In this document: positions 1 through 34,611 of the stretch, one piece after another | Numbering within the stretch: the first letter of the stretch is position 1 | Layout of the letters: every line of letters starts with the position of its first letter | DNA from: Candidatus Dadabacteria bacterium | Lineage (GTDB): Bacteria; Desulfobacterota_D; UBA1144; Nemesobacterales; Nemesobacteraceae | Direction of reading: 5' to 3' | DNA: 64,000 bases | Assembly (NCBI GenBank): GCA_951812945.1 | Contig: CATOTB010000006.1 | Location: forward strand, 77,335 to 141,334 | Translations under genes and position numbers: made by a program | The notes under the pieces: generated by a model | What the model saw: the letters and a program-made list of their open reading frames with translations, nothing else | What the model was told of the DNA's origin: nothing | Database searches by the model: none

Positions 1-330
1 CCCTACATTGCTGATCTTCCCGATATCGTTTTGCCGGAGAAAGAGCTTGTCTACACGAAAATGGAATCCCTGATCAGGCATTTCGTTCTGGTTTACAACG
101 GTTTCGAGACTCCTCCGGGGGAGATATACCACGCCGTGGAGAACCCCAAGGGAGAGCTTGGTTACTACATAGTAAGCGACGGTACGGGAAAACCCTACAG
201 GATGCGGGTTCGTGGGCCGTCGTTTGTGAACCTGCAGGCCCTTCCAGATATGGTAAAGGGGGGATTTGTCTCCGATGTCGTTGCTGCGATAGGCAGCATC
301 GACATAGTGCTCGGGGAAGTCGACAGGTAG
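1..330 (+). CDS. nuoD: NADH-quinone oxidoreductase subunit D, 3' partial (the gene begins upstream of the window)
   Basis: Reading frame is open from position 1. The C-terminus ...[12 protein letters not shown] matches the conserved NuoD/Nqo4 C-terminal end. Stop codon at 328-330. Confidence 0.8.
296..323 (+). repeat. Direct repeat copy 1: the 3' end of nuoD (gcatcgacatagtgctcggggaagtcga)
   Basis: 28-nt exact match to 1080-1107. Read directly from the sequence. Confidence 0.9.
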
Positions 331-404: not shown

Positions 405-656
405 ATGAATACTGGTCATATGACAACCATTAATGCATCTGATTTCAAGGCACGGTGCCTGGCCATCCTCGATCGCGTTCATGAGACCGGCGAACGGGTG
501 GTTATCCTGAAGCGTGGTAAGCCAGTTGCAGAGCTGTCACGTGTGGTCAGCGAGGGAAACCGGTATCCTCAGAGTGAACTGGAGGGGACGGTCATCATAG
601 CTGGCGATGTCATGGAACCGGTGTTTCCAGAGGAGCAGTGGGACAGCCTGAAGTGA
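405..656 (+). CDS. Type II antitoxin, Phd/YefM family
   Basis: 83 aa, ...TINASDFKARCLAILDRVHETGERVVILKRGKPVAEL..., a typical Phd/YefM N-terminus. Overlaps the downstream PIN-domain gene by ~19 nt. Confidence 0.7.
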   Translation: MNTGHMTTINASDFKARCLAILDRVHETGERVVILKRGKPVAELSRVVSEGNRYPQSELEGTVIIAGDVMEPVFPEEQWDSLK

Positions 657-1054
657 AGAATGTGTTGCTCGACACACATATCCTGCTGTGGTGGCATGGA
701 GACCGCCGTCGGCTGTCTCGGGATCAACAGGACGTTATTGCGTCTGCCGACGCAGACTCGCCGTTGCAGGTATCCGATATTTCGCTTTGGGAAGTGGCGA
801 CGCTGCACAGTCTGGGTCGTATTCGCCTGAAGATTCCCCTCCGGGAATGGTTGGAGAAAGCGGTTGCACCTCCGCTGGTGCGGCGACATGGCATCTCCCC
901 GGCGGTAGCGGCCGAGTTAGTGTCGTTGCCGGATTCCTTTCATCGCGATCCGGCAGACCGCATTCTCGTGGCGACCGCCCGTGTGCTCGGCGCGACGCTT
1001 CTGACTCAGGACCACAGAATCGTCGAAGCTGAACTGGTTGACACGCTGAGCTGA
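638..1054 (+). CDS. vapC: PIN-domain toxin, VapC family
   Basis: 138 aa with the conserved acidic PIN residues (LLDTHILLW ... DPADRILVATA ... LLTQD). Translationally coupled to the upstream antitoxin. GC-rich. Confidence 0.75.
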   Translation: MGQPEVKNVLLDTHILLWWHGDRRRLSRDQQDVIASADADSPLQVSDISLWEVATLHSLGRIRLKIPLREWLEKAVAPPLVRRHGISPAVAAELVSLPDSFHRDPADRILVATARVLGATLLTQDHRIVEAELVDTLS

Positions 1055-5105: not shown

Positions 5106-8100
5106 TTACACCCAGTGACGCCTGCGCTGGAACGGATAGGTCGGCAGCGAAATGCGGCGGCGCGACTCCCCGGCGAACATGCCCTCAAAGGAAAGTGCCA
5201 GTCCCGCCTCGTATGCCCCTGCAACCGCTTCCGCAAAACCAGTACTGTCCTCCTCTGAATCCTCGTCGGATGGTCGCATCAGGCTCGCAAGCACGAATGG
5301 TGAGGCGGCAGCTTCCTCTCCGTCCGACGAGTCCGGCCACTGAAGGTTCACCTGCGGTCCCAATACCGCTCCGGGGCCAATCTCCACCACCGTATCCACT
5401 CCCAGCTCGGCAAGCGTGGAAACACCTGTGCCAAACGCCTCAGTTTCGCACGCCTGCGTACGCCAGTACGCCACGTCGAGTGGATTGTCCGCATCCACAA
5501 CTCGCCCCGTAACGCCGCTCACCAGAGTCAGGGATGGAGGTGAGACCGCACTCTCTGCAAATGCCACTTCCAGGCCGTTTAGAGATTGGTTCGGGTCCGC
5601 TCCCGGCAGCGCCGCCATCAGCGTGCCACGAGTCAAGGCAAGGCGCAATCCGTCCTCCAAGGTGAAGACTCCCGCAGCCCACGCCGCGGCAATCTCACCC
5701 GTTCCGTGCCCCAGTGCGACGTTCGGGCGGATCCCAACGCTCGCCCAAAGCGCCGTCAGCGCGCACTCCAATGCATAGAGAGCCGGCTGCGCCCAAGCTG
5801 CATCATTCAAATCGCCCGTTGCTTCGGCGCGCCCGAACATCACATCGAGTAGCGATGCTCCTTTCTCTGCGCGCACCACGGCGTCACAGTGGTCCAAAAC
5901 AGCGCGCACGACCGGCTCGCTGTCGTACAGCGCCTCGCCCATACCAACCCACTGGCTGCCCTCGCCTGTGTATAAGAATGCCACCCTTGTTACAGGCTGT
6001 GGAGCCGGTTTATCAGGCGTAGCGACAGTCTCCGCGAGTTTCGTCAGCCCTGCACGCAGAGACTGCGTATCCCCGAACACTACGGCGGCACGATGGTCAA
6101 AATGGCTGCGTCCGACACTCGCCGTCCACGCTATGTCAGCAAGTGCAGGCGCTTTTGGAGACGACCCGGCAATGTGCTCGTCGAGCCACGACAGGTATTG
6201 TCCCGCCATGTCGCGCAGGGCGCCGTCCGACTTGCCCGATAGCGGCAGGAAACGCACCGTGCGCTCCGTTAGTCCGTCTGTAGCCAGCGGCAGATTCGCA
6301 ACCGGCTCCGGCAGGGAAACGGGCACCGGCAGTGCGGCACCCCTGAGCGACTGCACTCCAGCACTTGCGCTGTCATCCTCTGTCGCGATTCCGTAGCCTT
6401 CCACCACCATATGTGCGTTTGCGCCTGACATGCTGAACGCGCTTACTGCCGCGCGTGGCGGCTTGTCAGAATGGGGTGGCCAGTCGGTTTTTTCAGAAGT
6501 TACCCGCACGGGCAGTTGGTCCCAGTTGATTTGTGGATTCGGCTCCTTGAAATGCAGATGTTTCGGAATGACACCCTGCTTCATCGCCAGCACAGCCTTT
6601 ATCAGGCCGGCAACGCCCGCCGCCGTCTCCAGATGTCCGATATTTGACTTTACGGTGCCTATCAGCAGCGGACAGTCGGCGTCGCGCCCTCTGCCGTACA
6701 CCGAGCTGGCTGCGTGTACTTCAATTGCGTCGCCCAATTGGGAACCTGACGCGTGCGCTTCGAGATAGTCAACATCCGTTCCGGTGAGACCCGCCCGAAC
6801 AAGCGCCGCCTCCATAACACGTTCCTGTGCTGGACCGTTCGGGACGGTCAATCCCGCGCTTGTCCCGTTCTGGTTAACAGCAGAACCCTTGATGACGCCC
6901 CATATTCGATCTCCGTCAACCTCCGCCTCGCTCAGCCGTTTTAAAACGAGCATTCCGCAGCCCTCGCCGCGTACATGACCGTCCGCAGAAGCATCAAAGG
7001 GGTGACACTGCCCGCTCGGCGACAGCATCCCCACATCCAGCATGAATCTGGAAACATCGTGCGACAGAGCCGCATGCACGCCTCCGGCGAGAGCCAGGTC
7101 CACCTCGCCCCGCTGTAGCCCACCAACGGCTTGATGCGCCGCAGCCAATGCTGAGGCGCAGGCCATATCGATGGCCATCGCCGGGCCCTCCAGACCCAGT
7201 GCGGACGCGACCCGCCCGGTGGTGATGCTGGCCGTTGTGCCGAGGTGAATGCCAGTCTTACCGCTGGCCTCAATCACATGTCGGTATTCGCTGCCGGCGA
7301 CTCCGGCATACACCGCGGTGCGGCTGCCCCGCAGGCTGTCGGGAGCGATTCCAGCGTCTTCGACAGCCTCCCAACTCGTCTCCAACATCATTCTTTGCTG
7401 TGGGTCCATCATCCGCGCTTCTATCGGCGCAATGTGAAAGAATCGTGAGTCGAACCACTCGATATTCTCAACAAACGCACCGTGCAGGTGTGTGGTGCCC
7501 TCGGAGTTCGAGTCTCCAAAGGCGTCCCTACGCGGATCGCCAGCCTGGCGTCCGTCGGTCACTGCGTCAGTGCCCGATTCCAGAAGATGCCAGTATTCCG
7601 AAAGGTTTTTCGCGCTTGGGAAGCGGCATGCCATGCCGACTATCGCTATGTCGTCATCCTCAGTAGCGACGAGTGGGCGCGGCGGGGGTGCGGCTGTCTC
7701 GGGTGTTGGAGCCGTCCCATCGTCCCCATCCAGTTGACCGAGTTCGTCCGCCAGATAATGCGCTAAGGTTGTGACGTCGGGATAGTCGAAGACAGCTGTG
7801 TTGGAGACGACATACTCGCCCGCGAATGCGCGGTTGAGCCGGTTTCTCAGTTCTACTGCCATCAATGAGTCCATACCCAGATCGAAGAACCCCACCGTTG
7901 GCGTCGGCGCCGACGGCAGCCGCAGAACTGCCTGTACTTCCCCCTGCAGGAATGACACCAGCATGCCTTCGCGTTCCGCCACAGTCGTCTTCCGCACTCT
8001 GGACATCAGGTCGTCCGCCTGAGCGGGCGAGTCGGCGTCGGCCTCGGGACTGGTGGACAGCAGGTCTTCTAGCAGGGAGGGACGGTCTTCGACAGCCTCC

Positions 8101-11100
8101 TCAAAAACTGCCCAGTCCATGGACATCACCACGGAATTCGTTACGTCCTGGCGCACAAGTCTGTCAAACGCCCTGAGACCTTGCTGCGGTGTAAACCAGC
8201 GGCCACCGAGCGCCGCTCGTTGCCGTTCAATCCGGTCTCGTTGTTCCGCCGCTTCGCCGATCTCTGACCACGCCCCCCAGGCAATGGCCTGTCCCGGAAG
8301 CCCCACCGCCCGCCGGTGGGCGGCGAGCTGGTCCAGGAACGCATTGGCTGCGGCGTGGTTTGCCTGGCCCGGATTGCCCATGACGCCAACTCGGCTCGAA
8401 AAGAGGATGAAGAGCTCCAGATCGCGGTCCGCCGTCGCACGGTGCAGGTGCCAAGCGCCCAGCACTTTCGGCCACAGCACCTGCTCGAACCTCTCCCAAC
8501 TCTGGTTCGACAGTGAAGCGTCCGACAACACTCCCACGCTGTGAATCACTCCGCCGAGCGGCGGAAGTTCCCGATCCATCCGCGCCAGCATGTCGTCCAC
8601 AGCTGAGGCATCCGTCACATCTGCCAGTTCCACCCTCACCGTGGACCCGCGTTTACGCAACGAGTCGATCTCTTTTTCAACCTCGGGGTCTGGTGGTCGT
8701 CGTCCATTCAGCACGATCGCCCCCGCACCGTGATCCGCTAACCAGCCGGCCACGGCGCACCCGATACCGCCCAGGCCGCCGGTCACCAAGTAGGTCCGGT
8801 CCTGCCGCAAACCACCCCCCCCCGCAAGCGGTGGTGTCGTCACGACGATCTTCCCGAGGTGCCGGGCCGATCGCATGAATCTCAACGCAGCTCCCGCTTC
8901 GGCCAGGGGCCACCTGCTGTGGATAAGCGGTTTCAGTTCTCCCGCCGTAAGGCGCTCCATCACGTCCCGGAGAACCCTTCCGACCCAAGCCGGCTCAGTC
9001 TTCTTCAAAACATCCAACTCCAGGATGGAGTAGGCAACGTCGGGACGAACTGCCGCCATCTCCTCCTCGCTCAGAATGTCCCGCCTGGCCAATTCCACAA
9101 ACCGGCCACCCTGTGCTAGGCATGACAGACTCGCCTCGATGAATCCCTCTCCCGTCAGGCTGTTGAGCACCACGTCGACTCCTGCGCCGTCCGTGGCCTC
9201 GAGGATCTCTTCCCCGAACTTTGTCGTGCGGCTATCGAACACATGCTCCACACCGATGGAACGGAGATAGGGCTGCTTCGATGCACTCGCCGTGGTATAC
9301 ACCTCGATGCCTACAGCACGCGCCAACTGGATGGCCGCGAGTCCCACACCTCCAGCACCTGCGTGAATCAGCACCCGTTCGCCAGCGTTCAACCCTGAGA
9401 GCTCATACGAGAATGCGGCTGAGACGAACACATTCGGCACCGTGGCGAGACCCGTCACCGAGATTCCCGATGGCGCGGGCGCCACCAATTCCTCCCGTAT
9501 GATCATTTCGGCCGCGAACGCACCACCGAACCCCAATCCAACCACATGATCGCCGGCCGAGACGGTTGACACCTCGGAACCCACATCGAGCACGTGGCCA
9601 CACATCTCCTTGCCTAAGTTCCCCTCTTCAATGAAGCCAAGCGAACGAAATACATCCCAGAAATTCATTCCGGCAGCCTCGACCGCGACGCGGACTTCTT
9701 TCGGCTCCAGGGAACGCTCCGGCAGCGGCTTGACGTAAGGCTTGTCGAATATGCCGTCCGGGTCCGGAGCCAGCACCCAGGCCGACTGCTGCGGCAATGT
9801 TAACCGCTCCGTGTTGGTCCCGGCCCGGACCAGGCGGGCTACCATACGTCGGCCGTAGCGATGTGCGATGTGATTCTCGTGATCGGGATACAGCAGTTCG
9901 TCCGGGAGTTCAGGCGACTGCGTTTTTGAGGGGTCCAGGTCAATCATCCTCGGCTTTAGATGCGCCGCTTCGCGGGACACCACCTTCCCGAAACCCCATA
10001 GCGTCGCGCCGGCAAGTTCCCCGCCAAGCTCCTTCTCCAGCACCTGCGCGCCCCGCGTAAGAAACCACACTCCGTTCTCGGGCACCGCATCGGAGTCAAC
10101 CAGCCCCTGCGTCAACGCCAGTGCGCTCGCCACCGCTCGCCTCGTGTCCTTCGCCATCTCTTCGTTTGTCGCATTCAGGCCGTGGCCGCCCAGCGCCACG
10201 AGGTGCACGACTCCTTTCAGAGGCGCATCCCCGGGTAGGCACTCCAACAGCGATTGCCACGACTCGCGCCGCTCCATGTCCACCGTTGACCGGACAATGC
10301 CGGACCCGTCCACTTCTGAATTCCCGTTCTCCGGGAGTTGATGGTCCGCCAGCACGACTGTCTGGTTGCGTGCGGCCAGATCTGCTGCCAGTTCTTCGGC
10401 CACGCCAGCGCTGTCCGCCGCCAGAACCCAGATGCCCGGTCTTTCGGTCACCTCAGCCGGACCCCGCGCCACGATCACACCCTTATCCGGCATCTCGGCC
10501 GAGTCGGACTCTTCCAACCCCAGCACTTCTATTTCCCCGAAACCCACGTCAGTGAGTACGCGACGCCACACAGCAGGATCCACCAAGGCGTGTTGCGGTC
10601 GGTAGGCATCGGCGAACCGCCACCAGCCGTCCAACGGCCCGAAAGTCAAGTCCATCCAACCCATACCCCTCAGGTTCTCGAGCGCGACCAGCTGTCCTGA
10701 TGGCGCGAGAAGCCGCCGGCAGTGCGCAAGCGTCTCATTTAGGTATTGCGTGGCGTGCAACACATTGGATGCAATCACCAGGTCGTAACCGTGGAAATCG
10801 AATCCCTGCTCCACCGGATCCTTCTCGATATCCAGCATGCGGTAATCTATCGACGCTTCATCGCCTCCGAAGCGCGCCTCTGCTTCCGCAAAGAAGCCCG
10901 CCGAGATATCCGTGTACATGTAGTCGAACCGTCCTTCCGGGAGTTCCGGCAGGATGGCCGCGGTCGCCGACCCTGTACCCGCCCCGACTTCGATCACCCT
11001 GAGGCGTCGGCCGTCGGGCAACCCCGCCACAAGAGTCTGAACCGTTTCTCTCAGTATCCGGTTCGCCGCACGCGCCACCGGAGCTTTTCGATACAGATCG

Positions 11101-14100
11101 CCCGGGGTCGGGTCTCCGCTGCTAAACAGGATTGTCAACGGGTCCGCTCGGCCCAGCAGCACGTCTGCCAGGGCGTTACCAGACCGTCGAAAAAGCCCGA
11201 TCTCGGTCAAGCCGTGGGGATATAGCTCAGCTATTCGGGTAGCGAATTCTTCTGTGTCAAGCGGCATTTCATCCGGCAAGGGATCCCCGGATCCGATCCT
11301 CACGACGAAGTTGCCGTCCACCTCCTCCAACACTCCGGACTTGGCCAGCATCTCGAGCATCCGGCGGAACAAGCGCTTATGCTCCTCCACGACATTCAAG
11401 CGCCGCCGCAAGTCCTCTGAATCCACGGCCGCGCCCCCCTCGCGTTCCCACCCCAGCTTCTTCAAGGTCTCTAGCGCGCAGGATCGAGACCACCTCTCCA
11501 GGTCAGTCAGGAGGGCGCTTCTGTCCTTGGGCGTGACTCCTTCGTCGGCCAAATAATCTGAGAGCAACCCCGAGCGCGTTGCAACCGTTGCCTGAGACGC
11601 GAGGAAATCTGCGGACAGCATTCCGGGCGTGAGAGCCCTTTCGCGCCACACAACCTCATACAGCAGTTCATTCACCCCTTCGACTGCGGAGAGCAGCGCC
11701 GCCCGCGTCGCGCGTTTCACCATGTATCCGCTCAACCCGCCAAGCAGAACTCCATTGGGATCGTAGATGCGCAATTCTCCGTTCCAGACCTCGGGCGGCT
11801 CGCCCTGTTCCACTTCCGTTCCTTGGGAAGCCTCACTCATGCGCACGTGGCAGAGCAAGCGATCCGGCAGCCGATCCGCCAGCCACAGTCGCTCCCAGCC
11901 AAATGGTAGATAGGTGGTTTCCTCTTCTGCCCCGCCTGGATTGCGCGCTGCGGCCATAACCTGAAAGCAACCGTCCAGCAGGAGCGGATGAACGTCCAGC
12001 CCGTTGCGGCCGAGAGCTTCAGGGAAAGAAATCTCGCCTAACGCCTCGCCCGGCCGGGACCAGACCCTCCCGAGCGTACGGAAGAACGGGCCGAGATTAA
12101 TCCCCGTACTGGCCCGGGCACGGTAGTAGGCTGCCACGTCTATTGGCGACAGAGGGGCCTTGAGGCTTTCGAGATCGATCCGCCTACCGGCTTCCGGCAT
12201 CGGGGCGTCCGGCGATACGCGGCCTTCCACGTGTAACGTCCAGCCCTCTCCACTCCCCTTGCTGAATATCTGGACACGACGCGAATTTGCCCGCTCGGAA
12301 GAATCAAGCACAACCTGCACCTTTCGGCCCTCGTCACCGGTACCGTCCTCGGAACCCTCCTCCGGGAAAATCAGCGCGTTGTGCAGCTGCATGTCCTCCA
12401 CAACCACCGCGCCGCTCTCTTCTGTAAGGGATACCGATGCCGCCATGGCCCCATAGAGCGCGCCCGGAGCTATAACCCGGCCGAACACCCGGTGGTCGCT
12501 CAACCACTCCGGATCCGACCGGAACACTTCTGTCTCGAATGTGACCTCGCCGCTGGCGGATTCGTGCCGGACCCCCAGCAAGGGGTGGCCGACGCCCGAG
12601 CGTTGTTTTCTATTTGAATCAAGCCAATGGCGTTCGCGTTGGAATGGATAGCTTGGCAACGAGATGCGACGGCGCGCCTCCCCCGCGAAGAGCCCTTCAA
12701 AACGAATCGGGAGCCCCGCCTGATACGCTTCCGCGACCGCCCGCGTGAAATCGGCGCCATCCGCGGACGCTCGGGATTCACCAGACGGTGGGCGCAGGCT
12801 TGACAGCACCGTGGGTGGCGGTGTCTGTACCGAGTCCGGCCAAGCCGCGCCCGTCATCGTGGCCAGGATCGGTCTCGGCCCTATCTCCAACACCAAGTCC
12901 ACCCCGAGTTCCGCCAACGTCCGGACACCGCGGGCGAACGCCACCTTCTCGCGGGCATGCTGCCTCCAGTAGGCTCCGTCCAGCGCTTGGCCAGGCTCCA
13001 GCGCTTGGCCAGTCAGGTTGCTGACCACGGTGAGGGAGGGTGGTTCGATCGCCACACTATCCAAGGAAGCTTCCAGCATGTCCAGAGCTGGCTCCACCAA
13101 GGCGCTGTGGAACGCGCGGGCTGTGTTCAGCCGTCTTACCCGGACTCCTTCCGATTCGAAGCGCTTCGAGATGGTTTCAATCTCTGCAACCGGGCCGCTC
13201 ACCACTTGGTGGCCGCCGTTGTCCGCCGAGATGCTCAGCCCAGCACTGGCAGATGATTCGTTCAGCTCCTCGACCGTTGACGCCACTCGTGCCGGAGTGG
13301 CAAAAACCGCTGCCATTGCGCCCGGTTCGGTTTCCGACAGCAGGGTGCCCCGCGCCGCGGCAAACCGCATTCCATCCTCCATGCTGAACACTCCCGCTGC
13401 CTGCGCCGCCGCCAGTTCCCCGACACTGTGCCCCAACACCACGCTGGGACGAACCCCTACACTCGACCAGAGCGCCGTGAGCGCGCACTCGAGGGCGTAG
13501 AGGGTCGGCTGCTCCCACGCCGTATCGCTCAGATTGCCTTCGCCGCACCCGAACATCACGTCAAGCAACGAGGCGCCTCTTTCAGCCCGAAACACCTCCT
13601 CACAGCGGTCGAGAACCGCCCGCGCCACCGGCTCACGTTCGTAGAGCGCCTTTCCCATGCCGGCCCATTGGCTTCCTTGCCCGGTATAAACAAACGCCAC
13701 TTTCATCGCTGTTTGCGGCCCTGGACTCTCGCCCACATTCCCCAGCGCTTTCAGCCCCTCCCGTAGCGACCCGGTATCCCGAAACACCACGCCTGCACGA
13801 TGATCAAAATGGCTCCTCCCTACGCCTGCAGTCCACGCCATGTCCGAGAGTAAGGGTTCTAAAGAGGTGCTTTGGGAAGCAAGATCCTCTGGATGCTCGT
13901 CCAGCCACAAGAGGTAACGCTCCGCAAGTTCCCGGAGTGCGGTCACCGATTTGCCGGACAGCGGCAGCAACCGGGTCTCGCGCTTCCTTAACCCTTGCTC
14001 AGGCAGCGGCAAACTCTCCGCGGCCTTCGGCAAAGAGACTGTCACTGTCTGGGCTGAGCCAACAAGCTGACGCTTCCCGTAGGGCAATTCCCCTGGGGCA

Positions 14101-15479
14101 ATGTATTCTTCCACCACTATGTGGGCGTTCGTCCCGGATATCCCGAAGGAGTTTACTCCTGCCAGTCGCGCCCGTCCGCCACGCTGAGGTAAGTCCATCA
14201 TGGACGAAGTAACCTTTAAAGGCAGTTGGTCCCAATCGAGGCTAGGGTTGGGAACCTGGAAATGCAGGTGCTTCGGAATCACGCCGCGCTGCATCACCAG
14301 CACTGCCTTGATCAGACCAGCGATTCCGGCAGCCGACTCGAGGTGGCCGATATTGGTCTTTACGGAACCGATCAAAAGAGGATGATCGGCTTTGCGTCCT
14401 CTGCCGTAGACAGCGGAGACGGCCTCGATCTCAATCGGGTCGCCTACAGCTGTTCCAGTTCCGTGCGCCTCCAGGTAATCCACATCCGAAGCGGGAACTC
14501 CGGCCTGCGACAGCGCCGCTTCCATCACCTGTTCCAATGCGGGGGTGTGCGGTACGGTCAGTCCGGTGCCGGGTCCGCCGTTATTCACCGCCGAGCCTCG
14601 GATCACCCCCCAGATCCGATCGCCATCCTCCTCGGCCTCGCTCAGCCGTTTCAGGATAACGACGCCGCAACCTTCACCGCGCACGTAACCGTTCGCAGAC
14701 GCATCGAACGTCTTGCACTGCCCGTCCGGAGACAGCATCATCGCATCCGCACGGAGTTCGAAAATGCGACTGTTCAGGATGGCCTGCACACCGCCTGCAA
14801 TGGCCAGATCCGCCTTGCCCTGCTGCAGGTCTGCCACCGCGTCGTGGACCGACACCATGGACGACGCGCACGCGGCGTCCACTGCCTTTGCTGGTCCCAT
14901 GAGGCCCAGCACGAAAGAGACCCGTCCGCTGGTACCGTTGAGGTTTGTGCCGCTCAGAGCATAAAGACATGAGGCGGCCTCGGCAGGTTTCCTTGACTCC
15001 ACTACCAGCATCCTGTATTCGTCGTTGCTGATCCCGGTGTATACCCCGGTGCGGCTGCCCTTCAGCCGATCCGGATCCATACCCGCATCCTCAAGAGCCT
15101 CCCAAGTGGTTTCCAGCATCATCCGCTGCTGTGGATCCAGCAACTGGGCCTCGACCGGAGAAATACGAAAGAACCCCGCGTCGAACTGCTCGATTCCGTC
15201 GACATAGCCACAGAAACGACAGGCCTTGCTCGGAATCTGTCCATCGGGGAAAAGCTCGTCCATACGCCCGACGCCGGAACCTGGGACGCCCTCCGTCACC
15301 ACGTTCTGGCCGGCTTCGAGCAGGCGCCAAAAGGCCGGTATACTCGGTGCGCCGGGGAACCGGCACCCCATGCCCACGATTGCTATCGGTGGACCGAGTC
15401 CAGATTTTTCCTGTCTCTGAATTTCAGAGTGGGGCGATGATTCCCCAGAGGAATCGCAAGACTTGTTTGATTCCGTCAT
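5106..15479 (-). CDS. Type I polyketide synthase with domains KS-AT-DH-cMT-ER-KR-ACP-KS-AT(degenerate)
   Basis: 3457 aa, ATG preceded by GGGAGGGAG. KS1: DAACASS Cys, EAHGTGT, NIGHLE. AT1: GHSVGE plus RAFHS (malonyl-type). DH: HRVFGRVIAPG plus LLDGCFQ. cMT: VIEVGAGTGS SAM motif. ER: LIHAGAGGVGLAAIQLA. KR: TGGLGGIG. ACP: FFDLGMDSL. KS2: DMACAS, EAHASGS, NIGHLE. AT2: GHGTGE, no Ser. Ends ...YPFQRRRHWV. Confidence 0.95.
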   Translation of the reverse strand: MTESNKSCDSSGESSPHSEIQRQEKSGLGPPIAIVGMGCRFPGAPSIPAFWRLLEAGQNVVTEGVPGSGVGRMDELFPDGQIPSKACRFCGYVDGIEQFDAGFFRISPVEAQLLDPQQRMMLETTWEALEDAGMDPDRLKGSRTGVYTGISNDEYRMLVVESRKPAEAASCLYALSGTNLNGTSGRVSFVLGLMGPAKAVDAACASSMVSVHDAVADLQQGKADLAIAGGVQAILNSRIFELRADAMMLSPDGQCKTFDASANGYVRGEGCGVVILKRLSEAEEDGDRIWGVIRGSAVNNGGPGTGLTVPHTPALEQVMEAALSQAGVPASDVDYLEAHGTGTAVGDPIEIEAVSAVYGRGRKADHPLLIGSVKTNIGHLESAAGIAGLIKAVLVMQRGVIPKHLHFQVPNPSLDWDQLPLKVTSSMMDLPQRGGRARLAGVNSFGISGTNAHIVVEEYIAPGELPYGKRQLVGSAQTVTVSLPKAAESLPLPEQGLRKRETRLLPLSGKSVTALRELAERYLLWLDEHPEDLASQSTSLEPLLSDMAWTAGVGRSHFDHRAGVVFRDTGSLREGLKALGNVGESPGPQTAMKVAFVYTGQGSQWAGMGKALYEREPVARAVLDRCEEVFRAERGASLLDVMFGCGEGNLSDTAWEQPTLYALECALTALWSSVGVRPSVVLGHSVGELAAAQAAGVFSMEDGMRFAAARGTLLSETEPGAMAAVFATPARVASTVEELNESSASAGLSISADNGGHQVVSGPVAEIETISKRFESEGVRVRRLNTARAFHSALVEPALDMLEASLDSVAIEPPSLTVVSNLTGQALEPGQALDGAYWRQHAREKVAFARGVRTLAELGVDLVLEIGPRPILATMTGAAWPDSVQTPPPTVLSSLRPPSGESRASADGADFTRAVAEAYQAGLPIRFEGLFAGEARRRISLPSYPFQRERHWLDSNRKQRSGVGHPLLGVRHESASGEVTFETEVFRSDPEWLSDHRVFGRVIAPGALYGAMAASVSLTEESGAVVVEDMQLHNALIFPEEGSEDGTGDEGRKVQVVLDSSERANSRRVQIFSKGSGEGWTLHVEGRVSPDAPMPEAGRRIDLESLKAPLSPIDVAAYYRARASTGINLGPFFRTLGRVWSRPGEALGEISFPEALGRNGLDVHPLLLDGCFQVMAAARNPGGAEEETTYLPFGWERLWLADRLPDRLLCHVRMSEASQGTEVEQGEPPEVWNGELRIYDPNGVLLGGLSGYMVKRATRAALLSAVEGVNELLYEVVWRERALTPGMLSADFLASQATVATRSGLLSDYLADEGVTPKDRSALLTDLERWSRSCALETLKKLGWEREGGAAVDSEDLRRRLNVVEEHKRLFRRMLEMLAKSGVLEEVDGNFVVRIGSGDPLPDEMPLDTEEFATRIAELYPHGLTEIGLFRRSGNALADVLLGRADPLTILFSSGDPTPGDLYRKAPVARAANRILRETVQTLVAGLPDGRRLRVIEVGAGTGSATAAILPELPEGRFDYMYTDISAGFFAEAEARFGGDEASIDYRMLDIEKDPVEQGFDFHGYDLVIASNVLHATQYLNETLAHCRRLLAPSGQLVALENLRGMGWMDLTFGPLDGWWRFADAYRPQHALVDPAVWRRVLTDVGFGEIEVLGLEESDSAEMPDKGVIVARGPAEVTERPGIWVLAADSAGVAEELAADLAARNQTVVLADHQLPENGNSEVDGSGIVRSTVDMERRESWQSLLECLPGDAPLKGVVHLVALGGHGLNATNEEMAKDTRRAVASALALTQGLVDSDAVPENGVWFLTRGAQVLEKELGGELAGATLWGFGKVVSREAAHLKPRMIDLDPSKTQSPELPDELLYPDHENHIAHRYGRRMVARLVRAGTNTERLTLPQQSAWVLAPDPDGIFDKPYVKPLPERSLEPKEVRVAVEAAGMNFWDVFRSLGFIEEGNLGKEMCGHVLDVGSEVSTVSAGDHVVGLGFGGAFAAEMIIREELVAPAPSGISVTGLATVPNVFVSAAFSYELSGLNAGERVLIHAGAGGVGLAAIQLARAVGIEVYTTASASKQPYLRSIGVEHVFDSRTTKFGEEILEATDGAGVDVVLNSLTGEGFIEASLSCLAQGGRFVELARRDILSEEEMAAVRPDVAYSILELDVLKKTEPAWVGRVLRDVMERLTAGELKPLIHSRWPLAEAGAALRFMRSARHLGKIVVTTPPLAGGGGLRQDRTYLVTGGLGGIGCAVAGWLADHGAGAIVLNGRRPPDPEVEKEIDSLRKRGSTVRVELADVTDASAVDDMLARMDRELPPLGGVIHSVGVLSDASLSNQSWERFEQVLWPKVLGAWHLHRATADRDLELFILFSSRVGVMGNPGQANHAAANAFLDQLAAHRRAVGLPGQAIAWGAWSEIGEAAEQRDRIERQRAALGGRWFTPQQGLRAFDRLVRQDVTNSVVMSMDWAVFEEAVEDRPSLLEDLLSTSPEADADSPAQADDLMSRVRKTTVAEREGMLVSFLQGEVQAVLRLPSAPTPTVGFFDLGMDSLMAVELRNRLNRAFAGEYVVSNTAVFDYPDVTTLAHYLADELGQLDGDDGTAPTPETAAPPPRPLVATEDDDIAIVGMACRFPSAKNLSEYWHLLESGTDAVTDGRQAGDPRRDAFGDSNSEGTTHLHGAFVENIEWFDSRFFHIAPIEARMMDPQQRMMLETSWEAVEDAGIAPDSLRGSRTAVYAGVAGSEYRHVIEASGKTGIHLGTTASITTGRVASALGLEGPAMAIDMACASALAAAHQAVGGLQRGEVDLALAGGVHAALSHDVSRFMLDVGMLSPSGQCHPFDASADGHVRGEGCGMLVLKRLSEAEVDGDRIWGVIKGSAVNQNGTSAGLTVPNGPAQERVMEAALVRAGLTGTDVDYLEAHASGSQLGDAIEVHAASSVYGRGRDADCPLLIGTVKSNIGHLETAAGVAGLIKAVLAMKQGVIPKHLHFKEPNPQINWDQLPVRVTSEKTDWPPHSDKPPRAAVSAFSMSGANAHMVVEGYGIATEDDSASAGVQSLRGAALPVPVSLPEPVANLPLATDGLTERTVRFLPLSGKSDGALRDMAGQYLSWLDEHIAGSSPKAPALADIAWTASVGRSHFDHRAAVVFGDTQSLRAGLTKLAETVATPDKPAPQPVTRVAFLYTGEGSQWVGMGEALYDSEPVVRAVLDHCDAVVRAEKGASLLDVMFGRAEATGDLNDAAWAQPALYALECALTALWASVGIRPNVALGHGTGEIAAAWAAGVFTLEDGLRLALTRGTLMAALPGADPNQSLNGLEVAFAESAVSPPSLTLVSGVTGRVVDADNPLDVAYWRTQACETEAFGTGVSTLAELGVDTVVEIGPGAVLGPQVNLQWPDSSDGEEAAASPFVLASLMRPSDEDSEEDSTGFAEAVAGAYEAGLALSFEGMFAGESRRRISLPTYPFQRRRHWV
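5310..5990 (-). other. PKS domain AT2, degenerate and predicted inactive
   Basis: aa ~3164-3390. The active-site motif reads GHGTGE (nt 5697-5711) instead of GHSxG. The ~70 aa carrying the specificity motif are absent relative to AT1. Confidence 0.75.
6390..7655 (-). other. PKS domain KS2 (second ketosynthase)
   Basis: aa ~2609-3030. Cys2774 in DMACAS, His2909 and His2949 present. Confidence 0.8.
7740..7982 (-). other. PKS domain ACP (integrated)
   Basis: aa ~2500-2580. GMDSL with Ser2538. Confidence 0.8.
8220..8798 (-). other. PKS domain KR (ketoreductase) with His in place of the catalytic Tyr
   Basis: aa ~2228-2420. TGGLGGIG Rossmann motif. SSRVGVMGNPGQANHAAANAF has H2375 (nt 8355-8357) where the canonical motif is GQxNYAAAN. 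Confidence 0.7.
8835..9782 (-). other. PKS domain ER (enoylreductase)
   Basis: aa ~1900-2215. NADPH-binding LIHAGAGGVGLAAIQLA. Confidence 0.8.
10530..11342 (-). other. PKS domain cMT (C-methyltransferase)
   Basis: aa ~1380-1650. ExGxGxG SAM-binding motif VIEVGAGTGS at aa 1496-1505. Confidence 0.75.
11730..12602 (-). other. PKS domain DH (dehydratase)
   Basis: aa ~960-1250. HxxxGxxxxP with His996, and DxxxQ with D1169. Confidence 0.75.
12810..13700 (-). other. PKS domain AT1 (acyltransferase, malonyl-type signature)
   Basis: aa ~594-890. GHSVG Ser685 and an RAFHS specificity motif. Confidence 0.8.
14106..15389 (-). other. PKS domain KS1 (ketosynthase)
   Basis: aa ~31-458. Catalytic Cys204 is encoded at 14868-14870, and both catalytic His motifs are present. 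Confidence 0.85.
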
Positions 15480-18679: not shown

Positions 18680-20137
18680 CTAAAAGGCGATCACGGCTAG
18701 AAGCGTATTTGAGGCCTGAGCCGCCAGATCCCATGACAACAAAGGAAATATACCGAAAAAAACAGTGACTGCGGTAAGCACGGCGATTGTAGCTCCCGAA
18801 AGCGGCTTGTTCGCGCTTGCTCCGTAACTGTCTTCCTTCATAAACGCGCAGACAAGCACCTTGAGGTAGTAGTACGCGGAGATTACGCTTGCTATTATTC
18901 CTATCACCGCAAGCGGCGTCAGATTAGCGTCAACTGCGGCTAAAAACACCCTGTATTTTCCGAAAAATCCTATAGTCGGCGGAATTCCCGCAAGCGAGAA
19001 CATAAATACTCCAAGCGCGAGCGATGTTGCCGGTTTTCTACTCCATAGTCCCGATATCCTCTCGAAAGTGTCGCAGTCGCTATCCTCCCTGCTCACGTAG
19101 GCGAGGATTCCGAAAGCCCCGAGGTTCATGAAAGTATAGGCAAACAGATAGTAAAGAACGCTTCCGCTTCCGACCGAAGCGTCAGAAAGGACTGCAGCCA
19201 CTCCGACAAGGGCGTATCCCGCGTGCGCCACGCTTGAGTAGGCAAGCATTCTCTTTATGCTTTTTTGATATATGGCGGCTATGTTTCCCACTATCATGGT
19301 CAGCACCGCCGCGATCTGTACAGCGGCCATCATGTAGCCCTCAAACGCAGAACCGGAGTCGAGAAATATTCTCAGCAGCAGTACAAAGGCCGCCGCTTTT
19401 ACCGCCACGGACATATATCCCGTAACTGTGAGAGGAGCGCCCTCGTAGATGTCCGGTACCCACTGGTGAAGCGGCACGGCTCCTATTTTGAATATGACTC
19501 CCGCCGCCACGAAAGCGGCTCCGCAGACATACATCGGGAGATTTGCCGGATTTGCGAAAATTTCCTCTAGAAAAGTGGAACCGGTAGCCCCGTAGAGAAG
19601 TGCGATTCCGAAAAGCAGTACCGCGGAAGAAAATCCCCCCAGAACAAGATACTTTACGCCTGATTCCGTCGAGTCGAGGGATCTGCTTCTGAACCCCGAG
19701 AGTATGTAGACGGCGATTGACATGATTTCGAACCCAACGAAAAGCGTCATGAGTTCAACTGAGGATGCGAGAATCATCATCCCGCTCGTGCAGAAAAGCA
19801 CAAGCGCGTAGAACTCCTCAAGCCACTGTGTGCGTTTCTCAAGGTGGTCTTTTGAAAAAAGAATCGTCGCAAGCGCCGCCAGGAGGAAAAGGGAGTTGAA
19901 ATAGGCGGAGAAGGAATCGATCACAAGTGCGCCGGAAAACGCGGAGCTTTCGCCGGAGAATCTGGCGAAGTTAAGGATGAGGGAGAGTACGGTGCCCGCA
20001 ATCGCGAGGAGAAAAAGCGACCCGGTCCATCTTTTTTTCAGAATCGGGGCGCAGATAAGTATGAGCAGGGCGGCTAGTATAAGTATGCACTCGGGGAGGA
20101 TTGCCAGCGTACTTTCAAATAGAACCTGGACATTCAT
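18680..20137 (-). CDS. nuoN: NADH-quinone oxidoreductase subunit N (NuoN/Mrp antiporter-like)
   Basis: 485 aa polytopic membrane protein with the NuoN-type conserved TM organisation. Confidence 0.75.
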   Translation of the reverse strand: MNVQVLFESTLAILPECILILAALLILICAPILKKRWTGSLFLLAIAGTVLSLILNFARFSGESSAFSGALVIDSFSAYFNSLFLLAALATILFSKDHLEKRTQWLEEFYALVLFCTSGMMILASSVELMTLFVGFEIMSIAVYILSGFRSRSLDSTESGVKYLVLGGFSSAVLLFGIALLYGATGSTFLEEIFANPANLPMYVCGAAFVAAGVIFKIGAVPLHQWVPDIYEGAPLTVTGYMSVAVKAAAFVLLLRIFLDSGSAFEGYMMAAVQIAAVLTMIVGNIAAIYQKSIKRMLAYSSVAHAGYALVGVAAVLSDASVGSGSVLYYLFAYTFMNLGAFGILAYVSREDSDCDTFERISGLWSRKPATSLALGVFMFSLAGIPPTIGFFGKYRVFLAAVDANLTPLAVIGIIASVISAYYYLKVLVCAFMKEDSYGASANKPLSGATIAVLTAVTVFFGIFPLLSWDLAAQASNTLLAVIAF

Positions 20138-20197
20138 AGCTTGATCTCTCCCGGCGTGTACGGCCTTTTCCTGGTTTCAGCTGTTTTCTTCATCACT

Positions 20198-20683
20198 TCA
20201 ATCGGAGTCTTTAACCACTTCGAACTTTCTTTCTTCAAACTGGAAGTCCTGCTCGTCAATGTACCATATTCTCGCGTCGGCTAGCTTCCCGCTGGTTACC
20301 GAGAAAATTATATACGCCCATCCAGGTGACGCCACCTGTCTGTCTGTTTCCGAAGGTACCGAAGGGTGGTCCGGGTGCGAGTGGTATATGCCGAGGATCT
20401 CGAGACCGTTTTCCCTTGCCCACGAATCCGCTTCTATGTAGGAACGCGGGTCAAGCTCGAAACGGTCTTTTAACCTGTTGCTGTCAATATTCCCTGTTTC
20501 CTTAAACGCCGTTTCGGATCTGTCGTCGGCGACCAGGTTGGCGCATTTGCGAAAGTGAGTAACGGTATCTTTTTCTCCGATCATCACGCCGCAAACTTCG
20601 TAAGGGTAGCCGGATTCGGCATCCCGTGTCATGCCCAGATAAGCCGATTTATATATTTTTAGGGAATTATGTATTTTTACCAC
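20198..20683 (-). CDS. JAMM/MPN+ metalloprotease, Mec+-like
   Basis: 161 aa. JAMM motif GIYHSHPDHPSVPSETD (HxHx7Sx2D). Overlaps cysM by 7 nt. Confidence 0.75.
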   Translation of the reverse strand: MVKIHNSLKIYKSAYLGMTRDAESGYPYEVCGVMIGEKDTVTHFRKCANLVADDRSETAFKETGNIDSNRLKDRFELDPRSYIEADSWARENGLEILGIYHSHPDHPSVPSETDRQVASPGWAYIIFSVTSGKLADARIWYIDEQDFQFEERKFEVVKDSD

Positions 20684-21618
20684 CAGAGTCTTTCACTCAG
20701 GTACCTTCTGCCCGAGTCGGGAAGAACCGTTACCAGAACTCCTTCTTTCAGTTTTTTAGCGTATTCAAGCATTACGCAGACCGCGGCACCTCCCGAGTGA
20801 CCAACGAATATTCCCTCGGTCTCCATCAGCCGTTCCATCATTTCATACGCTTTCTCAGTCGAGATGAAGACGACTTCGTCGGCCGCCTCCTCGTTGTATA
20901 GGCCGGGAACTATTGAAGTAGGCATGTGTTTCATGCCCTCGAGTCCGTGGAGACTTTCCTCGGGTTGGATCGCGATTGTCTTTATGTCGGGGTTGTACTC
21001 TTTAAGTCTTTTCCCGGTTCCCATGAAGGTTCCCGATGTGCCGAGTCCCGCGAGAAAATGGGTCACGGCACCCTTTGTCTGTTCCCAGATCTCAGGCGCC
21101 GTAGTCTCGTAGTGGGCGAGGGTGTTATTGATGTTGTTGTACTGGTCCGGCATGAAATATCTGTCGGGGTTATCCGCTTTTAGCTTGTGAGCCATTCTTA
21201 TTGCTCCGTCTGAACCCTCGAGAGGATTTGAGAAGGTTATTTTCGCTCCGTAGGCTTCGATCGCTTTTTTTCTCTCGGTGTTTACGTTCTCGGGCGTTAC
21301 GATTTCAACCTCGTACCCAAGCGCGGCTCCCAGCATCGCGTATGCGATCGCGGTGTTCCCGGAAGAGGAGTCCATAATAACCTTGTTTTTTGTGAGTTCG
21401 CCTGAGCGTATGGCTTCCAGGATCATTCTGCGGGCGGGGCGGTCTTTTATTGAACCTCCGGGGTTAAACCACTCGGCCTTCGCGTAAATCCTGACTCCCG
21501 GGGGGCATTCCTTTGCGGTTTCGGAAAGTTCCAAAAGAGGGGTGTTGCCTATAAGGTCAACCACCGATTCGACTCTTGAACCTCTGGCAGCGGAGGTTCC
21601 GGCTTCGGATCTATGCAT
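20677..21618 (-). CDS. cysM: Cysteine synthase, CysM/CysK family (PLP-dependent)
   Basis: 313 aa. PLP lysine motif GSIKDRPA and the glycine-rich SSGNTAIAYAMLGA. Confidence 0.85.
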   Translation of the reverse strand: MHRSEAGTSAARGSRVESVVDLIGNTPLLELSETAKECPPGVRIYAKAEWFNPGGSIKDRPARRMILEAIRSGELTKNKVIMDSSSGNTAIAYAMLGAALGYEVEIVTPENVNTERKKAIEAYGAKITFSNPLEGSDGAIRMAHKLKADNPDRYFMPDQYNNINNTLAHYETTAPEIWEQTKGAVTHFLAGLGTSGTFMGTGKRLKEYNPDIKTIAIQPEESLHGLEGMKHMPTSIVPGLYNEEAADEVVFISTEKAYEMMERLMETEGIFVGHSGGAAVCVMLEYAKKLKEGVLVTVLPDSGRRYLSERLWW

Positions 21619-21857
21619 TAGCAGCGCTCGATGATTACCTTGTGGTAGCGGCCTTCTTCTTGTACTATGGCCAGGACCTTGTGACCTTCCTGTTCCACGC
21701 TTCTCGGGAGGTTGGAAAGAGGCTCTCCCTCGCAGAGCCTGACTTCAAGGACCTCACCGCGTTCCATTCTCTCAAGCTTAAGTTTGGTTTTTACAAACGT
21801 CATCGGACAGATGTAGCCCGTTATGTCTATTTTTTCCTTGCTCTGCGTATCGTCCAT
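21618..21857 (-). CDS. TusA-like sulfur carrier/sulfurtransferase
   Basis: 79 aa. GYICPMTF, a CPxP-like TusA motif. The stop overlaps the cysM start. Confidence 0.6.
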   Translation of the reverse strand: MDDTQSKEKIDITGYICPMTFVKTKLKLERMERGEVLEVRLCEGEPLSNLPRSVEQEGHKVLAIVQEEGRYHKVIIERC

Positions 21858-21914
21858 GTTAAAAACCTCTCGGCGCGCAATCTCCCGTTAAGACTAACAC
21901 AGTCCGCATTTTAC

Positions 21915-22628
21915 TCAAACCGCTTTTCCGTCGGCATTCCGGGACTTTATCCACGATATTACGGATTCGAACATTTTCCTGCCGTCCTCTGAACCCAGCA
22001 GGCTCTCGAAACTGCGCTCGGGGTGAGGCATCATGCCGAGCACGTTGCCTCGGCTGTTTGCGATTCCGGCTATGTTGTCCTCGGCACCGCTTGGATTTGC
22101 TTCGGAGGTCAGTGCTCCTCCATCCCCGCAGTACCGCAAAACTATCCTTCGTCCCTGGGAGCTGTTCCCGTCCGGAGGCAGTACGAAATTGCCCTGGGCG
22201 TTTGCGACCGGGAGCTTCAGCACTTCTCCCTTGCGCAGAGTGCAGGTGAAAGGGGTGTCGGTATCCTCAACCCTCACGCTTGTCCATCTGCAGACGAATT
22301 TCAGGGAAGAGTTGTGTATGAAAGCTCCGGGGAGAAGTCCCGATTCGACCAGGATCTGGAATCCGTTGCATATTCCTATTACGGGGACTCCGAGCCCGGC
22401 AAGTTCCCTAAGCGGGCTTACGACGGGAGAGAACTGCGATATGGCTCCCGCACGAAGATAATCCCCGTAGGAAAACCCTCCCGGTATCACGACGCAGTCA
22501 ATTCCCGCAAGGGAAGTTTCCTCGTGCCATATAAGATCGCAGGGCTGGGCCAGAATTTTCCTTATTGCGTGGTAGCAGTCGTGGTCGCAGTTAGAACCCG
22601 GAAAGAACAGAACTCCAAAATTAGGCAT
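21915..22628 (-). CDS. purQ: Phosphoribosylformylglycinamidine synthase subunit PurQ (glutaminase)
   Basis: 237 aa class I glutamine amidotransferase. Catalytic GICNGFQ plus the His/Glu pair HPE. Confidence 0.85.
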   Translation of the reverse strand: MPNFGVLFFPGSNCDHDCYHAIRKILAQPCDLIWHEETSLAGIDCVVIPGGFSYGDYLRAGAISQFSPVVSPLRELAGLGVPVIGICNGFQILVESGLLPGAFIHNSSLKFVCRWTSVRVEDTDTPFTCTLRKGEVLKLPVANAQGNFVLPPDGNSSQGRRIVLRYCGDGGALTSEANPSGAEDNIAGIANSRGNVLGMMPHPERSFESLLGSEDGRKMFESVISWIKSRNADGKAV

Positions 22629-22629
22629 T

Positions 22630-22884
22630 TTACTTTTCCGCTATTTCTACCGAGAAATCTTCAATTACGGGATTGGAAAGCAGTTTCCGGCACATCTCAT
22701 CCGCTTTGCGGCCTATCTCTTCCGAGGATTCACCTTCCATGGTGAGTTCCACGATTTTTCCTACCCTCGCGTCGGAAACCCCGTTGAATCCAAGACCGCC
22801 AAGAGCGTTAAGCACCGCTTTGCCCTGAGGGTCGAGCACAACGGCCTTAAGCTTGACCTCTATTTTGACCGAAAACTGTTTCAT
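22630..22884 (-). CDS. purS: Phosphoribosylformylglycinamidine synthase subunit PurS
   Basis: ~84 aa starting at MKQFSVKIEVKLKAVVLDPQG. Lies immediately upstream of purQ. Confidence 0.75.
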   Translation of the reverse strand: MKQFSVKIEVKLKAVVLDPQGKAVLNALGGLGFNGVSDARVGKIVELTMEGESSEEIGRKADEMCRKLLSNPVIEDFSVEIAEK

Positions 22885-22921
22885 CTCTTGTTTCCTTGCT
22901 CCGGCGTGGCTTCGCGGGATA

Positions 22922-23785
22922 TTACCCGCGCGAGAGGAGCATGCCAACAATTCTCTCAAGCTCCTCGGGAGAATAGTACTCTATTTCTATTTTCCCTCTT
23001 GTCTTGTTGTGGCTTATCCTTACTTTGGTTGAGAATTTTCCGGCAAGTTCTTCGGTAAGTTCTCTGGTGAAAATATCTTCCTCGACCTCAATTTTCCCCG
23101 CGGTGAGCTCGGTGGGCAACTGAGCGCTTCCGGCTTCCTTCTTTACAAGCGCTTCGGTTCTCCTTACCGTGAGATCTTTTTTAAGCACTTCGCCGAGAAG
23201 GAAGTCCATCTCCTTGAAGGAGGGGGCGGTGAGAAGCGCTCTTGCGTGCCCCGCGGTTATTGAGCCCGAGACAAGGGCTTCCTTCGCCTTCTCTGAAAGC
23301 CTGAGAAGCCTCAGCTGGTTTGTTATGACCGAGCGGTTTTTTCCCGTCCTCTTTGCTATTTCCTCGTGGGTAAGCCCGAAGCGCTCCGCGAGCTTTTCAT
23401 AGGCTTCCGCCTCCTCGATGGGGTTCAGGTCCTCTCTCTGTATGTTCTCTATTAGCGTGAGTTCCGCCACGTCCTGATCGGTGGCGGTCCTTATTACGAC
23501 GGGCAGTTTCTCCAGTTTCGCTATTTTCGCCGCTCTCCACCTGCGTTCCCCGGCCACTATTTCGAAGCCGCCGTTTTCTTTGCGTACGACAAGTGGCTGT
23601 ATGACTCCGTTTTCCCTTATGGATTCTGCGAGTTCCTCAAGGGCGCCCTGCTCGAAGTGCTTTCTCGGCTGCGATGCGTTCGGCTTCAGCAGGTCCGTGT
23701 TTACCATCCTGTACCCTTCGGATTCTTCGTCCGGACTCTTCGGGATAAGCGAGTCAAGTCCCCTTCCCAGACCTCGTCTCTTCAC
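22922..23785 (-). CDS. parB: Chromosome partitioning protein ParB
   Basis: 287 aa. ParB box GVIQPLVVR...IVAGERRWRAA. Confidence 0.85.
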   Translation of the reverse strand: MKRRGLGRGLDSLIPKSPDEESEGYRMVNTDLLKPNASQPRKHFEQGALEELAESIRENGVIQPLVVRKENGGFEIVAGERRWRAAKIAKLEKLPVVIRTATDQDVAELTLIENIQREDLNPIEEAEAYEKLAERFGLTHEEIAKRTGKNRSVITNQLRLLRLSEKAKEALVSGSITAGHARALLTAPSFKEMDFLLGEVLKKDLTVRRTEALVKKEAGSAQLPTELTAGKIEVEEDIFTRELTEELAGKFSTKVRISHNKTRGKIEIEYYSPEELERIVGMLLSRG

Positions 23786-23786
23786 G

Positions 23787-24569: not shown

Positions 24570-24665
24570 TTGGTGATTAAAGAATGATAAACTTGCAGGT
24601 GTTATCAGTCAAATAAGTCTTGTCCCGGAACCGGGCCCGCGCGGACGGTTCCCGGAGGATTAACC

Positions 24666-26332: not shown

Positions 26333-26365
26333 TGATACCCACCGTGTTCTTCGCGGAACCGGGTT

Positions 26366-34605: not shown

Positions 34606-34611
34606 CCCGGC

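Follow-up and report, generated by a model that had tools for sequence, protein, structure and literature searches.

How does a fatty-acid-synthase-like megasynthase come to end in a ketosynthase (KS) that is followed by an apparently inactive acyltransferase (AT), with its acyl carrier protein (ACP) encoded as a separate polypeptide? The question is raised by a type I polyketide synthase (PKS) gene found in a 64,000-nucleotide stretch of DNA from Candidatus Dadabacteria (GenBank assembly GCA_951812945.1, contig CATOTB010000006.1, positions 77,335 to 141,334), hereafter the window. The gene, at 5106..15479 on the minus strand, encodes 3457 amino acids and is the sole long open reading frame (ORF) there; its ATG start is preceded by the Shine-Dalgarno sequence GGGAGGGAG. 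With high confidence we identify the region as a supABCDE cluster (Sup, 'sponge symbiont ubiquitous PKS'), located in the chromosome of a sponge symbiont whose small genome is Dadabacteria/Thermodesulfobacteriota-like. Taken as a whole, the best explanation of the locus is probably that of a Sup cluster in which the second ketosynthase (KS2) extends the chain onto the discrete carrier protein SupB.

Annotation with Pfam gives the domain order KS-AT-DH-cMT-ER-KR-ACP-KS-AT0, in which DH is a dehydratase, cMT (or MT) a C-methyltransferase, ER an enoylreductase, KR a ketoreductase and AT0 (also AT2) the second AT (Table 1). An earlier, sequence-only reading of the locus had proposed this order, and had described KS2 as intact, the second AT as crippled, and the protein as ending at the post-AT linker with a discrete ACP downstream. 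All of these descriptions hold up, as detailed below. Module 1, which runs from KS1 to the integrated ACP (ACP1), is predicted to be complete and fully reducing, with an embedded C-methyltransferase, a malonyl-type AT and intact catalytic motifs. The motif xAFH is of the malonyl type, and the malonyl assignment of AT1 rests on established knowledge of AT motifs. No loading module is present in the Pfam map of supA, and the Pfam scan of the polypeptide returned no thioesterase (TE), reductase (R) or condensation (C) domain. The same reading held that the system has no release domain; this is right for the polypeptide, with the nuance that the operon also encodes a discrete alpha/beta-hydrolase.

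The catalytic residues of KS2 are all in place: Cys2774 in the motif DMACAS, His2909 in EAHASG and His2949 in NIGHLE. In AT2, by contrast with AT1, the nucleophile motif reads GHGTGE instead of GHSVGE (consensus GHSxGE), and about 76 residues equivalent to AT1 residues 722–797 have been lost, comprising the small subdomain and the His of the xAFH motif. Outside this deletion, KS2-AT2 and KS1-AT1 are 57% identical. A KS-AT linker, at residues 3077–3150, matches the Pfam CurL-like family, and the protein stops directly after YPFQRRRHWV, at the point where the equivalent sequence of module 1, YPFQRERHWL, leads into the DH. We interpret KS2-AT0 as an internal duplication of KS1-AT1, and AT0 as a recent deletion derivative of AT1. 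Structure prediction of KS2-AT0, which the sequence-only reading had recommended, gave an AlphaFold (AF2) model with a pLDDT of 78 and a pTM of 0.81, showing a canonical KS-linker-AT didomain fold. Its best structural match is the CurL KS-AT didomain (4mz0, TM 0.82); other solved relatives are the KS-AT didomains of DEBS, Lsd14 and GfsA, which are bacterial.

Conservation of individual residues was counted in an alignment of 68 full-length proteins and, for some positions, in a second alignment set made up of 77 C-terminal sequences. The active-site Cys of KS2 is present in 68/68 proteins and its two His in 64/68 and 66/68, and the KS2 Lys is found in 77/77 of the C-terminal sequences. At the nucleophile position of AT2, Gly occurs in 52/68 full-length proteins and in 68 of the 77 C-terminal sequences, 76 of which carry the small-subdomain deletion. 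Invariant columns make up 23% of KS2 versus 30% of KS1, and 6–9% of AT0 versus 14–33% of AT1. That KS2 is conserved much like KS1 while AT0 is relaxed argues that KS2 is an enzyme under selection and AT0 a retained scaffold, predicted to be incapable of acyl transfer. Module 1 is conserved throughout. In KS1, both His are present in 68/68 and the Cys in 67/68 (the remaining row is a gap); Ser685, Arg710 and His791 of AT1 are each present in 68/68, as are the DH His and Asp, the glycine motif of the MT, the NADPH motif of the ER, the Lys, Ser and Asn of the KR, and the Ser of ACP1.

The architecture itself is widespread. A survey in which each GTDB species was represented by a single genome yielded 78 loci, nearly all of which have MT, ER, KR and ACP, ordered as here, upstream of the matched KS. 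The neighbors of the PKS include an ACP and a hydrolase in most of them, usually together with a phosphopantetheinyl transferase (PPTase) and a permease. More than 55 species-level genomes contain one ORF of 3350–3600 amino acids with the same end as SupA. Of the loci that were fetched, 67 have one ORF of at least 3150 amino acids as their reading frame, which in more than 55 cases ends at or shortly after YPFQRRRHW; for L066, L067 and L077–L079 the anchor match lay on KS1, and these frames possibly fall short of the whole protein. Likewise, most of the best 120 homologues of KS2-AT0 have their end at YPFQRRRHW or only a few residues away from it. The search for the whole-protein architecture in public genomes, also called for earlier, has thus shown it to be conserved in nearly all of 78 loci and not unique to the window; it belongs to a family that has been described, though not biochemically characterised.

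From the stop codon of supA (5106–5108) to the ATG of supB (4993) there are 112 nt, and supB has its own Shine-Dalgarno sequence, AAGGAGGA. The genes supB and supC are separated by 32 nt, and supC overlaps supD by 4 nt. SupB is 29% identical to E. coli AcpP over 76 residues (E 3e-10), and in sequence comparison it has no significant match to ACP1 of SupA. Its best NCBIfam matches are acyl carrier protein models of fatty acid synthase (FAS), at scores below their cut-offs. Judged by sequence, SupB is AcpP-like and not PKS-ACP-like. Residues invariant across the SupD family include H43-G44 (oxyanion motif), H114-S115 (nucleophile elbow), D248 and H277. The AlphaFold model of SupD is poor (pLDDT 62), and its Foldseek matches are generic alpha/beta-hydrolases, among them the curacin TE, at TM 0.3–0.4; matches of the sequence in the PDB and NCBIfam are non-specific. 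The cluster holds no discrete AT gene, as judged from its ORFs and Pfam matches.

We assign the region to Sup because the gene set, the published description as a 'small mono-modular PKS' and the hosts all match; the assignment is made on these three grounds. Searches for homologues of KS2-AT0, of the hydrolase and of the KS1 amplicon region returned only generically named proteins of metagenome-assembled genomes (MAGs), and no named SupA. The supA–E genes, with the fosmids pSW1H8, pAPKS18 and pAE27P20, are said to go back to Fieseler et al. (2007, AEM 73:2144) and Hochmuth et al. (2010, ChemBioChem 11:2572). In the former, SupA is reportedly drawn as KS-AT-DH-MT-ER-KR-ACP-KS-AT, with SupB as an ACP, SupC as a PPTase and SupD as a hydrolase. 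Sup synthases have been described as unusual, small, mono-modular type I PKSs that are exclusive to high-microbial-abundance (HMA) sponges, as candidates to synthesise mid-chain-branched fatty acids, and as the source of >99% of sponge KS amplicons in one survey (PMC4245539). The Sup group in sponges is treated also in PMC3908369 and PMC9864124, and MAGs of several phyla contain SUP gene cluster families, which are 'independent of bacterial taxonomy' (PMC9426513). For the Aplysina fosmid pAPKS18, the SupE entry reads permease (PMC3908369). Like Sup, the present locus encodes a small, mono-modular PKS that resembles a FAS and includes a methyltransferase; genes for an ACP, a PPTase, a hydrolase and a permease accompany it in the A-to-E order; and its relatives are spread over sponge symbionts of many phyla. 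The extra C-terminal KS-AT after the ACP, reportedly a feature of SupA, is present here. What sets the locus apart is its Dadabacteria/Thermodesulfobacteriota-like host, which is not among the phyla named for SUP (PMC9426513), and the apparently recombinant module 1 of this supA allele.

The hosts of the 78 loci are MAGs of at least eight phylum-level groups, all of them lineages typical of sponge microbiomes. Closest are Thermodesulfobacteriota / Candidatus Dadabacteria MAGs, at 87–90% identity and with genomes of 1.5–2 Mb. Further hosts belong to Binatia, Dehalococcoidia / SAR202, Nitrospirales, Chromatiales / 'Porisulfidus', Latescibacterota, Acidobacteriota, Bryobacterales, Acidimicrobiia and 'Spongiisociaceae', and the names of several mark them as sponge taxa or sponge bins. 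Such lineages are standard members of HMA sponge communities; Dadabacteria are listed among sponge-symbiont MAGs (PMC8163846).

What, then, might the terminal KS do? Two roles had been put forward from the sequence, one resembling that of a chain-length factor (CLF) and the other a final, non-reducing extension onto the trans ACP. The evidence favors the latter, and we consider it probable that KS2 and SupB together form a catalytic second module, split between two polypeptides. Because there is no loading module, a fatty-acyl thioester would serve KS1 directly as its primer. Module 1 would add a malonyl-derived C2 unit, methylate its alpha-carbon with S-adenosylmethionine (SAM) and reduce it fully, giving 2-methylacyl-ACP1. 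KS2 would then take the alpha-branched chain and condense it with malonyl-SupB; since AT0 cannot charge SupB, charging would fall to AT1 or to the FabD of the host. The product, 3-oxo-4-methylacyl-SupB, could pass to the type II fatty acid synthase (FAS II) for processing and elongation, by which the methyl group would end up mid-chain, or could be released by SupD. Methyl-branched fatty acids would be the end product, in line with the proposal in the Sup literature. We are less sure of the full route to mid-chain-branched fatty acids, which is offered tentatively. Slightly more speculative still is the notion that KS2-AT0 and SupB act as a 'return ramp', where a single condensation would move an alpha-methyl-branched chain from a type I module to a type II-style carrier and FAS II would finish the job.

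It is also conceivable that module 1 works iteratively, in the manner of a highly reducing PKS (HR-PKS) or of mycocerosic acid synthase (MAS). It would cycle from a short primer with programmed action of the cMT, KS2 and SupB would carry out a last, unreduced extension, and SupD would release a beta-keto acid or a product derived from it, e.g. a methyl ketone. In favor of this, SupA has a single complete reducing module and no loading module; the closest solved KR is that of MAS, an iterative enzyme; iterative FAS and HR-PKS have the same domain order; and a non-reducing last module would leave a 3-oxoacyl-SupB that a hydrolase could release. The sequence, however, does not separate single from repeated use of the module, and Sup-linked lipids are described as mid-chain-branched (PMC4245539), as expected from one methylating cycle. 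Moreover, an AcpP-like SupB suggests hand-over to FAS II over terminal release. On balance we think an iterative synthase unlikely. Less likely by far is that KS2-AT0 is a non-catalytic remnant, whether CLF-like, a dimerisation scaffold or a docking platform, and that SupB serves some other end such as primer delivery to KS1. AT2 is clearly dead, and as an internal duplicate of KS1-AT1 (57% identity) the didomain might be a decaying copy. Known CLFs are without the active-site Cys, however, and the CLF-like role is contradicted because the Cys of KS2 is invariant. The near-complete retention of its two His, the invariant Lys and an overall conservation close to that of KS1 speak equally against a remnant, and a decaying copy would not keep its triad across at least eight phylum-level lineages.

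We give almost no credence to an assembly or frameshift artefact, or a pseudogene, whose true protein would continue into DH, KR, ACP or TE domains, a concern that had been raised from the sequence. The gene is broken up in certain long-read assemblies of relatives (L002), and beyond this we found no support for an artefact here. A frameshift hiding further domains was looked for and not found: in dozens of independent assemblies the stop falls directly after YPFQRRRHW or at most about 13 residues beyond it, as in the more than 55 genomes with the same single-ORF end; a Shine-Dalgarno sequence and the ATG of a discrete ACP follow 112 nt downstream of the stop; and none of the ORFs examined carries an ACP fused beyond the post-AT linker.

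Several points weigh against the reading that we prefer, in which KS2 extends onto SupB within a Sup cluster making branched fatty acids. In the literature the Sup product is only 'proposed' or 'supposed' (PMC4245539). The family of SupE transports nucleobases, which is an odd fit for lipid export, and the permease may lack a link to the pathway. Finally, the KR has a His in place of its catalytic Tyr, and its activity is a prediction only.

This last point deserves closer attention. His2375 of the KR (codon 8355..8357, minus strand; GQANHAAAN) sits where the KRs of MAS and AmphB have their catalytic Tyr. The His is found in 36/36 homologues that have a KR and in 68/68 full-length Sup-type proteins. 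A census of the position over the KR domains of cluster representatives, for which 145 of the best 150 were retrieved, counted 331 Tyr, 23 His and 2 Ser. A dead KR was considered and rejected: we do not read the domain as inactive, because the His is invariant, DH and ER are intact, and a review records that the Tyr is 'sometimes replaced by histidine' (PMC7327777), making His a natural alternative. In multimodular PKSs, most His-type KRs belong to cMT-bearing modules, and Tyr-type KRs belong to modules that have no cMT, a few exceptions apart. The His variant is a known substitution; its association with cMT modules was not met in the literature examined.

Among the nearest relatives of the KR are those in the multimodular cis-AT PKSs P0387, P0403, P0434 and P0515, which share both the order KS-AT-DH-MT-ER-KR-ACP and the His-type KR, and which, to judge from their C-terminal docking-like tails, are probably bacterial. 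We take their modules to be of the JamJ/CurJ type known from cyanobacteria. They continue into full modules downstream, whereas in SupA only KS-AT0 is left of the following module, and its ACP is a separate polypeptide. Among solved KRs, that of MAS comes closest (E 6e-46); like SupA, MAS is a single-module, fully reducing type I PKS, and it uses a fatty-acyl primer to build methyl-branched fatty acids. MAS acquires its methyl groups from methylmalonyl-CoA through the AT, however, and is without a cMT, a second KS or a discrete ACP; we did not classify SupA as a MAS-like PKS, given that its AT1 has the malonyl-type xAFH and its cMT is intact. Fungal HR-PKSs such as LovB have the domain order of SupA module 1 in common with it, and the sequence-only reading had called the arrangement fungal-like and uncommon in bacteria. 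Neither part of that description survives comparison. The same order occurs in the multimodular PKSs just mentioned; the LovB KR (E 7e-30) ranks well below those of MAS and AmphB as a relative of the SupA KR; and the closest solved relatives are bacterial throughout (CurL, DEBS, Lsd14 and GfsA for KS-AT; MAS and AmphB for the KR), for which reason a fungal-like origin was rejected. SupA further differs from the fungal enzymes in lacking trans-ER logic and a condensation or reductase domain at its C-terminus, and a second KS-AT0 is not known from HR-PKSs. The domain order reflects a common megasynthase layout and no fungal affinity. A trans-AT PKS was rejected as well, as AT1 is an intact cis-AT, a discrete AT gene is absent from the cluster and AT0 derives from AT1; module 2 would merely resemble a trans-loaded module in its working.

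A second sponge-specific, mono-modular type I PKS/FAS offers a further comparison, namely Swf (swfABC, 'sponge symbiont widespread FAS', Della Sala et al. 2013, PMC3908369). Like SupA here it is without a TE, it is spread over symbiont phyla, and its function is unknown (PMC3908369; PMC9426513). SwfA has the order KS-AT-DH-ER-KR-ACP, and so differs from the present SupA in having neither an MT nor a second KS-AT; the partner genes differ too, encoding a reductase-sulfotransferase and a radical SAM enzyme (PMC3908369). The SwfA KS is also without the DPQQ and HGTGT motifs (PMC4245539), both of which are present in SupA here.

The terminal KS-AT0 is real, but the Sup family has been known for nearly two decades, with many further recoveries after its description in 2007, and the didomain is not new as a discovery. 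The claim of an uncharacterised assembly logic stands in so far as the Sup pathway is biochemically uncharacterised; as a claim of novelty it does not, since the locus matches a family already described. Among the PKS genes of HMA sponges, those of Sup are reported to dominate, and they hinder searches for drug-relevant PKSs. The window contributes a supABCDE cluster that is complete and uninterrupted, in the defined chromosomal context of a small-genome symbiont, and thereby a clean template for heterologous expression. Comparison across the family sharpens the problem to a KS2 that appears intact and selected, an AT0 that appears to be a scaffold, a FAS II-like carrier in SupB, and a KR with the His variant throughout. 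If true, the 'return ramp' would be the first defined module for hand-over from type I to type II synthesis, and would give an enzymatic origin for the mid-chain-branched fatty acids used as biomarkers of sponges and their symbionts.

Table 1. Domains of SupA and partner genes of the cluster, with positions in the window
Feature	Residues or length	Position	Strand	Basis
KS1	31-407	14259..15389	-	Pfam; Cys204/His339/His379
AT1	596-897	12789..13694	-	Pfam; GHSVGE Ser685, Arg710, RAFHS, His791
DH	965-1262	11694..12587	-	Pfam; HxxxGxxxxP His996, DxxxQ Asp1169
C-methyltransferase core	1474-1604	10668..11060	-	Pfam SAM methyltransferase; ExGxGxG intact
ER	1926-2213	8841..9704	-	Pfam; GAGGVG NADPH motif
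KR	2229-2406	8262..8795	-	Pfam; Lys2338, Ser2362, Asn2379, His2375
ACP1 (integrated)	2511-2576	7752..7949	-	Pfam; Ser2538
KS2	2611-3023	6411..7649	-	Cys2774 (7158..7160), His2909, His2949
AT0 and post-AT linker	about 3156-3457	5109..6014	-	Gly3259 (5703..5705) at Ser nucleophile position
supB-type discrete ACP	81 aa	4748..4993	-	Pfam; NCBIfam; next to PKS in most loci
supC-type Sfp/HetI-type 4'-phosphopantetheinyl transferase	257 aa	3942..4715	-	Pfam; NCBIfam; related loci
supD-type alpha/beta-hydrolase	301 aa	3040..3945	-	Pfam; homologue, PDB and related-locus comparison
supE-type NCS2/xanthine-uracil-family permease	582 aa	1248..2996	+	Pfam; NCBIfam; convergent with operon

The history of this particular allele seems to be mosaic. 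KS2-AT0 and supB–E are 80–95% identical to the Dadabacteria-type genomes L006–L009 and L025, whereas module 1 is only 45–80% identical to the same genomes and more closely resembles L032 and L033, which are alleles of Nitrospirales and Chromatiales, with up to 90% identity in KS1. The identity switches at about residue 2500–2600 (window about 7700–8000), at the ACP1/KS2 junction. The GC content at third codon positions (GC3) is 0.69–0.72 in module 1, 0.64–0.67 in KS2-AT0 and 0.53–0.61 in supB–D. The switch in identity, together with the highest GC3 in module 1, indicates that module 1 was probably replaced by inter-lineage recombination with a foreign sup allele. In a related locus from a Thermodesulfobacteriota MAG (L001 = L024, CAXXCU010000001.1), positions 10001..11923 hold only an N-terminally truncated KS2-AT0 of 640–653 amino acids, with phage-tail-like and BNR-repeat genes immediately upstream of it, and supB–E are intact; this looks like a deletion or replacement of module 1.

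The sup cluster sits inside a core-gene region. Convergent NADH dehydrogenase genes flank it, with the end of nuoD at 31..330 on the plus strand and nuoN at 18680..20137 on the minus strand, the latter followed by ftsK and lolA (minus strand). Its GC content is 0.60–0.65, versus about 0.50 in the surroundings. Between nuoD and supE lie a PhdYeFM-type antitoxin gene (405..656, plus strand) and an overlapping ORF of 138 amino acids (638..1054, plus strand), which we take to encode a PIN/VapC-like toxin; a PhdYeFM-type antitoxin occupies the same position in the relatives L001 and L002. Among the ORFs checked in 20000..64000, no further biosynthetic or FAS II genes were seen. This part of the window carries housekeeping genes, including those for CinA, RecA, a thiamine pyrophosphate (TPP) enzyme, PriA, GlnE, NuoF, GatB and a porin, and a tRNA-Thr(CGU) gene is located at 60340..60411.

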